In this document: piece by piece, positions 3,486 to 4,311 of the stretch
How the letters are laid out: each line of letters begins with the position of its first letter
How positions within the stretch are numbered: the first letter of the stretch is position 1
Virus record (IMG/VR): IMGVR_UViG_2660238061_000002
Reading direction: 5' to 3' (one strand)
Origin: a virus
Lineage: Duplodnaviria; Heunggongvirae; Uroviricota; Caudoviricetes
Length of the DNA stretch: 10,033 nucleotides
Position numbers and translations under genes: made by a program
The notes under the pieces: generated by a model
Databases searched by the model: none
What the model was told of the DNA's origin: nothing
The model's input: the letters and a program-made list of their open reading frames with translations, nothing else

Positions 3486-3537
3486 GCCGTCCGCACAGTA
3501 AGGCTGCGGTCGATGCGTTCTTCTGCTGGAGTATTCC

Positions 3538-4311
3538 TTGCATAGCCCATCTTTGTATCCCCCGCCTTTAGCCCGCCGGGTTCTGCCGTTATTGGGCCTA
3601 GGAAGTTTGGGCGTTGCTGCCGTGATGATGCAACCAATACCGGCGAAACTCTTGGTCGCCGCTCCTGAACTCCAAGCCTTGCCCACTCTGGCACAACGTG
3701 CGGTATTGGCGCTGAATCCATTACTGCTCGTGATTGCTGCTTGCCTGGTTGGTGGTCTGTGTGCGCATCGCGCAGGGCTACGCAGTTGGTTGAGCGGTAC
3801 GGCAACCCGTGAGGGAGATCAGGTTTGGATAAATAGCATCATGCTCGGGCTCTTCATGGGTGCAACGGTTTGGCTGCTGGACGCATTGTGGCAGCCATGG
3901 CTGAGTAATGAATGGCGCACGCTCATATCGCAACCACAACCGACTGATTCTTGGCAACGTTTGACGATTGGAATCCTTTATGGCGGAATTGCCGAGGAAA
4001 TAATGGCTCGTTGGGGGCTAATGAGTCTGGTGCTGTGGATTTTATTTCACTTATCGGGATTGCTGGCAAGGCGCTGGATAGTTGTCTGTGCCATCCTGCT
4101 TTCTGCACTCGCTTTCGGGGGGGCTCATCTTCCCGCACTGGCCGTGCAGGTTGATCTAGATACCAATCTGGTCATACGGACCTTGATGCTCAACGGACTG
4201 GGGGGTGTACTTTACGGGTGGCTGTTCTGGCGTTACCACTTGGAGTCGGCAATGGTCTCTCACGCGGCATCTCATCTTATCTTAGTTGCATGTCAGCTCG
4301 GGAACTACTAA
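3538..4311 (+). CDS. Predicted CPBP-family (CAAX protease / Abi-type) intramembrane metalloprotease, about 257 aa, multi-pass membrane protein; start uncertain (TTG 3538, first in-frame ATG 3625, frame open back to 3502)
   Basis: About seven hydrophobic segments; motif EExxxR (AEEIMAR) and motif FxxxH (FGGAH) in consecutive predicted helices, then a His-containing helix (SHAASHLIL) where the third CPBP motif is expected; stop TAA 4309-4311. Confidence 0.55.
   Translation: MHSPSLYPPPLARRVLPLLGLGSLGVAAVMMQPIPAKLLVAAPELQALPTLAQRAVLALNPLLLVIAACLVGGLCAHRAGLRSWLSGTATREGDQVWINSIMLGLFMGATVWLLDALWQPWLSNEWRTLISQPQPTDSWQRLTIGILYGGIAEEIMARWGLMSLVLWILFHLSGLLARRWIVVCAILLSALAFGGAHLPALAVQVDLDTNLVIRTLMLNGLGGVLYGWLFWRYHLESAMVSHAASHLILVACQLGNY

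Follow-up and report, generated by a model that had tools for sequence, protein, structure and literature searches.

A predicted intramembrane protease gene on a short contig

The window (the whole 10,033-base stretch of DNA analysed here) contains a plus-strand gene for a predicted CPBP/Rce1-like intramembrane protease (3538–4311; 257 aa, TTG start, TAA stop), followed by a plus-strand gene for a protein with a GyrI-like small-molecule-binding domain (4359–4796; 145 aa, or 151 aa if ATG 4341 starts it), the pair being enclosed by two IS1 ends. Sixteen runs of exactly 10 N (starting at 505, 962, 1653, 1858, 2150, 2463, 2667, 2899, 3220, 5055, 5365, 6626, 6867, 8266, 8873 and 10015) divide the window into 17 short contigs. 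The contig that bears the protease spans 3230–5054, with both of its ends falling inside IS1; as it is bounded by N runs, whatever precedes 3230 or follows 5054 in the window is not a true neighbour of the protease gene.

The 3230–5054 piece has an exact copy (100% over 1,825 bases) in a GCA_001413425.1 record of 4.67 Mb (L015), and the window looks like a draft-assembly bin of small repeat and phage contigs in the pseudo-chromosome of that assembly (JRRN01000033.1). Open reading frames and features that cross an N run are artefacts, an example being a 535-aa minus-strand frame (6622–8229) that runs across the N run at 6626–6635. On the minus strand there is a match to RtT RNA at 2507–2675 (58.9 bits, cut-off 45) and, overlapping with it, a partial match to a tRNA (29.7 bits, cut-off 29), both of these entering the N run at 2667–2676; ARAGORN found no complete tRNA in the whole window. 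Elsewhere, the 5375–5984 piece carries an Ig_GpJ_C domain (phage tail host specificity, GpJ-like) according to the L015 gene calls, 2909–3219 has the look of a lambda J-type fragment when judged by eye, and there is a Phage_TAC_2 match at ~1663–1857; these three pieces fit collapsed prophage repeats.

The protease matches PF02517 (Rce1-like, CPBP; Pfam) with 38.2 bits (cut-off 22.4; E 1.8e-09). Its first catalytic motif, EEIMAR (EExxxR; 3994–4011, plus strand), is intact, and across 20 aligned family members E164, E165 and R169 of this motif are invariant, as are F204 and H208 of the second (FxxxH). The third motif of Rce1 is HxxxN; that of the present protease differs in being HxxxH, with H253 and H257 invariant in the window and all 19 homologues, and with an equally invariant Asn230 lying one helix ahead of it. 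The protein is predicted to have the Rce1-type helical membrane fold; structures have been solved for the relatives Rce1 (4cad) and SpdC (6u0o). Neither the protease nor the GyrI-like protein has a match in NCBIfam or PADLOC.

The downstream protein matches PF06445 just under threshold (25.6 bits against a cut-off of 26; E 1.6e-05); CP048302.1 is among the records that annotate it as GyrI-like. Most homologous loci have a gene of ~145 aa at this position 3′ of the protease (103 aa in L022/L023), with the match to the GyrI-like family confined to the window-type allele.

The cassette lies between two inward-facing IS1 left ends

The left IS1 fragment (3230–3485, minus strand) carries the IRL terminus, which from 3485 on the minus strand reads GGTAATGGTGCCAACTTACTGAT, together with the 5′ portion of insA, whose transcription is directed away from the protease; it is interrupted at 3229/3230 by the contig break (N run 3220–3229). 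Positions 3231–3485 are 92–96% identical to IS1 copies with annotated IS1 transposases, and by blastn the similarity ends at 3485. Identity to IS1-free DNA (described below) begins at 3486, hence the terminus lies exactly where the sequence-only reading had put it. The inward promoter of this IS1 was recovered on the minus strand at 3478–3451 by the standard promoter scan. The second end (4996–5054, plus strand) is again an IRL, GGTGATGCTGCCAACTTACTGAT, reading away from the cassette, with the contig stopping inside it; it is 100% identical to another IS1 copy (blastn). The two copies are of different isoforms, both point their left ends inward, and both are cut by contig ends (N runs 3220–3229 and 5055–5064). 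Between them lies a cassette of 1,510 bp holding the protease and GyrI-like genes.

Two complete conjugative plasmids of Salmonella Schwarzengrund (IncFIA; CP048302.1 and CP048300.1) have the cassette with both of its junctions at 100% identity, and in them the left IS1 is itself shortened to 206 bp by ISEc22 (the plasmid search used unique cassette sequence with IS1 excluded, since IS1 queries return thousands of IS1 matches). The IS1/protease junction also recurs base for base in a further assembly (L011). Because the junction is shared with complete plasmids, it is real and inherited.

In further loci the cassette has been interrupted by IS1 at different points and in different orientations. 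The Klebsiella pneumoniae plasmid pB18083_2 (L002) corresponds to window 3929–4846 and has lost all of the protease but its C-terminal 102 aa; a second CPBP fragment on this plasmid (L002 6591–6896), considered as the missing N-terminal half, proved to be an unrelated AT-rich gene. The P1-like region of E. coli NCTC11129 (L003; likewise NZ_LT883139.1 and NZ_CP081699.1) corresponds to the window from 4280 onward, such that these E. coli P1-like elements hold only the last ~30 bases of the protease gene and, on the right, contain native DNA beyond the point where it stops in the window. The cuts in L002 and L003 seem to have arisen in a single locus through separate IS1 events.

Tn9 is a composite transposon flanked by IS1. 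The present arrangement resembles it in having a short cargo (1,510 bp) between two IS1 copies, and in that the unit also occurs on conjugative IncFIA plasmids, but departs from it in that the copies are inverted, with left ends inward and differing isoforms, that the left copy is truncated by ISEc22 in the Salmonella plasmids, and that outer ends and any target duplications would fall beyond the contig. IS1/Tn9 is mentioned in PMC9330008.

Translation probably starts at TTG 3538, behind a conserved GGAG core

Re-reading of the protease frame bore out the coordinates from which the sequence-only reading had worked: the frame is closed by TAA 3499–3501 and open from 3502, includes TTG 3538, and has its first in-frame ATG at 3625, behind a hydrophobic helix, the residues ahead of this ATG being RRVLPLLGLGSLGVAAV. 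The same reading had seen no convincing Shine-Dalgarno sequence before TTG 3538, yet a GGAG core is present at 3528–3531 (plus strand), 6 nt ahead of this codon. Of nine in-frame candidates, TTG 3538 has ahead of it the sequence that pairs most strongly with the 16S rRNA 3′ end (-5.9 kcal/mol, as compared with -2.5 for ATG 3625, -2.4 for CTG 3523 and +1.3 for TTG 3553). About 15% of background positions pair at -5 kcal/mol or lower, and taken by itself the rRNA pairing is moderate evidence for this start.

Comparison with homologues adds to this picture (their N-termini being gene-caller output throughout, and GGAG referring to the 4-nt core only). In seven homologous locus types the position equivalent to 3538 is occupied by TTG, ATG or GTG, with GGAG kept 6–8 nt before it: TTG with GGAG 6 nt upstream in L004, L008, L010, L014, L017 and L024, GTG with GGAG 7 nt upstream in a 54%-identical homologue (L022), and ATG with GGAG 8 nt upstream in Microvirga lupini (L019). 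Members of the family are 228–280 aa long, and their conservation starts at an Arg-Arg pair and continues into the first helix, with no extra N-terminal domain.

The first transmembrane helix (3568–3624, plus strand; residues 22–40 of the frame starting at 3505) is preceded by this conserved pair at 3574–3579, and initiation at ATG 3625 would remove it. In a structure model of the frame from 3505 the helix has a block-mean pLDDT of 97 (residues 21–40), and the 11 residues upstream of TTG 3538 fall below 50. Over 3574–3624 the changed codons in four diverged loci show synonymous to non-synonymous counts of 10:3, 12:2, 10:3 and 8:3, the changes being strongly concentrated at third codon positions; this largely synonymous pattern indicates that the stretch is translated, which excludes ATG 3625, GTG 3622, TTG 3592 and TTG 3607 as starts. 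Codons 1–12 (3538–3573), by comparison, have changes spread evenly over the three codon positions and thus no coding signature, so that substitution patterns narrow the start down no further than to the interval 3502–3573.

Within that interval, TTG 3538 is preferred over CTG 3523/3526 or TTG 3553 because of its conserved start codon and GGAG, and because a net 2-nt length difference between window-type and Salmonella-type alleles, located immediately ahead of the GGAG, disrupts conservation of the frame at that point. A non-ATG start had been one of two alternatives offered by the sequence-only reading, and the GGAG, the homologue start codons and the synonymous pattern together support it. 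Public records differ on this point: the GenBank annotation of CP048302.1 (L001 4244) has the same gene from the CTG equivalent to window 3523 (262 aa), a start that we regard as unlikely, whereas gene calls in other collections begin at TTG 3538 (257 aa).

Out of frame with the protease, an ATG at 3513 begins a reading frame of 10 codons (MRSSAGVFLA), which is closed by TAG 3543–3545 and overlaps TTG 3538. In L004 and L008, which are homologues on Salmonella chromosomes, an ATG lies a few bases upstream in the alignment and, owing to the 2-nt length difference, is in frame with the protease; hence the 268-aa call made by one caller at these two loci.

IS1-free alleles encode the same protein

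Exact-sequence look-up of the 257-aa product, which is indexed in 168 blocks of the collection, led to alleles free of IS1. The identical protein is encoded in six IS1-free contigs (L009, L010, L012, L013, L014 and L016), with a one-residue variant (P0001) in the same arrangement in L017; in all of these but L013 a TetR-family gene (187 aa, TetR_N and TetR_C_28) lies on the opposite strand across a 98-nt gap. By blastn and alignment these alleles are 99.6–99.93% identical to window 3486–4995 (the L016 allele has 1 mismatch in 1,510 bases), and the identity stops exactly at both IS1 termini, starting at 3486 and ending at 4995. Across the position of the left junction the native DNA reads ...ATACGATAATATTATAATTGTGTAGTA|GCCGTCCGCACAGTAAGG....

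The window therefore retains, as is apparent from this comparison, a native leader of 52 nt (3486–3537, plus strand) that is the same in the IS1-free alleles and includes TAA 3499–3501. Since native alleles carry this in-frame stop, the native open reading frame cannot extend further upstream; going by the aligned alleles, no protease coding sequence has been lost to IS1. The suggestion that the insertion removed the 5′ end and left a truncated protease is refuted by these alleles, which encode an identical protein behind the same 52 nt and stop. The sequence-only reading had itself named what would speak against a lost N-terminus, and this is what was found: distant homologues start at the equivalent of 3538, and the IS1-free alleles share the 52 nt upstream.

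A scan of species-representative genomes returned three distant relatives only (Microvirga, a Comamonadaceae MAG and a haloarchaeon), the closest being Microvirga lupini at 54% protein identity, and no close IS1-free allele. In L010 (1–3300) the native allele sits beside cpYpsA, DUF5710 and other genes, the DNA of which is 91–93% identical to plasmids of Raoultella, Aeromonas, Klebsiella and Xanthomonas. Given these plasmid matches of the native neighbours, the cassette probably originates from a broad-host-range mobile element.

IS1 has taken the place of the native regulatory region

The native intergenic region between the protease gene and tetR is 98 nt long, and across native alleles and homologues the divergent TetR-family gene is 98–115 nt away. 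NCBIfam and PADLOC searches with the TetR regulator gave generic TetR matches only, below cut-off. The region contains two plus-strand promoter-like sites (TTGCCA-16-AAAAAT and TTGCCC-17-TATTAT, 9/12 each; 0.1 such sites are expected in shuffles), both of which lie upstream of the IS1 junction. Beside or overlapping the -10-like hexamers is a 12-bp palindrome, ATACGATCGTAT, that is found again in homologous loci with protein identity as low as 54% and takes the symmetric form ATACA..TGTAT (ATACAACTGTAT) in L004. This element fits an operator that a dimeric TetR protein would bind. A native -10 at TATTAT or TATAAT would put the transcript start only a few bases ahead of the junction, so that almost the whole leader would be retained.

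The trio of TetR, CPBP protease and an ORF of ~145 aa is conserved from 100% to ~54% protein identity; the loci examined for the trio and palindrome are L010, L014, L017, L004, L008, L022 and L024.

In the window tetR and the palindrome are missing, as IS1 stands in place of everything upstream of 3486 (position -52). tetR is likewise missing from every one of the 72,556 plasmids searched, CP048302.1 and CP048300.1 included, as well as from 5,426 complete E. coli genomes.

The tetR/tetA pair is the classic case of a TetR repressor with a divergent target operon and an operator in the shared intergenic region. Native alleles of the protease locus share this layout, having a TetR_N/TetR_C_28 protein on the opposite strand together with the conserved 12-bp palindrome, to which it would bind by analogy; the window differs from tetR/tetA in that the TetR/operator half is missing.

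A candidate hybrid promoter at the IS1 junction

The standard promoter scan found no plus-strand promoter upstream of the protease in the window. A lenient scan gave a candidate IS1/flank hybrid (3472–3499, plus strand), in which TTGGCA (3472–3477, within the IRL) is separated by 16 nt from CACAGT (3494–3499, native DNA); with 8/12 consensus matches it falls below the scan threshold of 9. TTGGCA is an outward -35-like hexamer 8 nt from the IS1 terminus, on the plus strand and facing the protease. CACAGT matches 3/6 as a -10 (A2 and T6 among these) and is the only -10-like hexamer at the right spacing (16–18 nt). A further candidate lying wholly within IS1 (TGGAGC-18-TACACT, 7/12) was set aside as too weak. 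As both IS1 copies transcribe away from the cassette, insA read-through is not available as a source of transcripts.

According to PMC8764528 and PMC4287979 (both citing Prentki et al, 1986), the IS1 inverted repeat has an outward -35, and a hybrid promoter forms if a -10 is suitably spaced; a table of IS1 hybrid (fusion) promoters appears in PMC9330008 (likewise citing Prentki et al, 1986), and examples of such promoters include blaTEM-1, acrEF, afaA and pgaA. PMC12428005 makes no statement on outward promoters. The present junction resembles such hybrids in having the outward TTGGCA of the inverted repeat directly upstream of a gene whose own promoter is displaced. It differs in that the documented cases have a good -10 at the right distance and raised transcription that was measured, whereas here the native -10 is gone, CACAGT matches at 3/6, and the candidate is read from sequence. 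Weak constitutive transcription of the protease from the hybrid promoter and a silent gene would stand at roughly even chances.

The sequence-only reading had allowed that the protease might be silent. There is ground for that concern insofar as promoter-like sites, operator and tetR have all been replaced by IS1; it does not extend to the coding sequence, which is not affected.

Discussion

Several other accounts of the locus were weighed against an intact gene read from TTG 3538. Were the IS1/protease junction an artefact of a fragmented draft genome, one would expect surroundings of the kind seen here, namely 17 short contigs joined by N10 and a protease contig that starts and ends in a repeat; yet there is no N run between IS1 and the protease gene, and the junction is found base for base in two complete circular Salmonella plasmids and in L011, and we consider an artefact practically ruled out. 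We judge it just as improbable that IS1 cut into coding sequence and cost the protease its native N-terminus. What drew attention to truncation is a frame whose open part comes as close as 17 nt to the IS1 end, with no ATG before 3625, but IS1-free alleles are the same from 3486 onward and carry the in-frame TAA 3499–3501, the identical 257-aa protein is encoded beside TetR where no IS1 is present, and the family (228–280 aa) has no further conserved N-terminal region.

The remaining alternatives concern the start codon within an intact gene. A protein of ~228 aa without its first helix would result from initiation at the first ATG (3625 or 3628), ATG being the commonest start codon and a 228-aa homologue cluster (P0005) having been called from the equivalent ATG; the P0005 frame, however, is open upstream and encodes the same RRVLPLLALGSLGV helix behind GGAG-6-TTG. 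Set beside the mostly synonymous changes over 3574–3624 in four diverged loci, the confident model of the helix (pLDDT 97) and an upstream rRNA pairing of only -2.5 kcal/mol, this leaves the ATG start with very little probability. Somewhat less remote, though still quite improbable, is a start at CTG 3523 or TTG 3553: the CP048302.1 coding sequence (262 aa) begins at the base equivalent to the former, and codons 1–12 have no coding signature with which substitutions could fix the start within 3502–3573. CTG is nevertheless a rare initiator with a pairing of -2.4 kcal/mol, the residues it would add upstream of 3538 are modelled below pLDDT 50, and the 2-nt length difference between allele types falls in that very stretch; TTG 3553 is replaced by Ser in L004, L008 and L024 and pairs at +1.3 kcal/mol. 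Other gene callers picked 3538 over either codon, and the resulting 257-aa product is the one found in 168 blocks.

We therefore favour, with considerable confidence, a whole protease gene that starts at TTG 3538 and a locus in which IS1 has replaced the promoter-like sites, operator and tetR. On this reading a 257-aa CPBP/Rce1-like protease would be translated from TTG 3538 by way of GGAG 3528–3531. In its native setting the gene would be the first of a two-gene unit (followed by the GyrI-like gene), divergent from a TetR-family repressor. The IS1 end adjoins native DNA 52 nt upstream of the start, such that the junction would approximately coincide with the native transcript start. Transcription would now come only from IS1-supplied DNA, most plausibly from a weak hybrid of TTGGCA and CACAGT, and if the gene is expressed in this way it would be constitutively so, since neither the repressor nor its operator is present at this locus.

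A more far-reaching proposal is that the junction uncouples a TetR-repressed protease and GyrI-like module, that a constitutive Prentki-type hybrid promoter drives it, and that the 1.5-kb IS1-bounded cassette spreads on IncF plasmids (in Salmonella and the source strain) since its constitutive expression is useful, e.g. in making the host immune to, or tolerant of, a bacteriocin or a toxic small molecule. We put this forward as a speculative and rather unlikely extension of the favoured reading.

Every element of the locus is of a known kind: a CPBP gene with a TTG start, a promoter-displacing IS1, a possible hybrid promoter and a TetR divergent unit. The protease gene and IS1 are already annotated in public records, and the replacement of regulatory DNA by IS1 is an ordinary mobile-element rearrangement. 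For annotation, the protease should be called from TTG 3538 (257 aa), and neither as a 5′-truncated pseudogene nor from ATG 3625 or the CTG. Comparison with the IS-free allele shows the coding part untouched and the regulatory half of a TetR-controlled unit gone, with the consequence that the protease and GyrI-like genes would be either silent or expressed at a low constitutive level. The trio of TetR, CPBP protease and GyrI-like protein is the only part of the locus with some wider biological interest.
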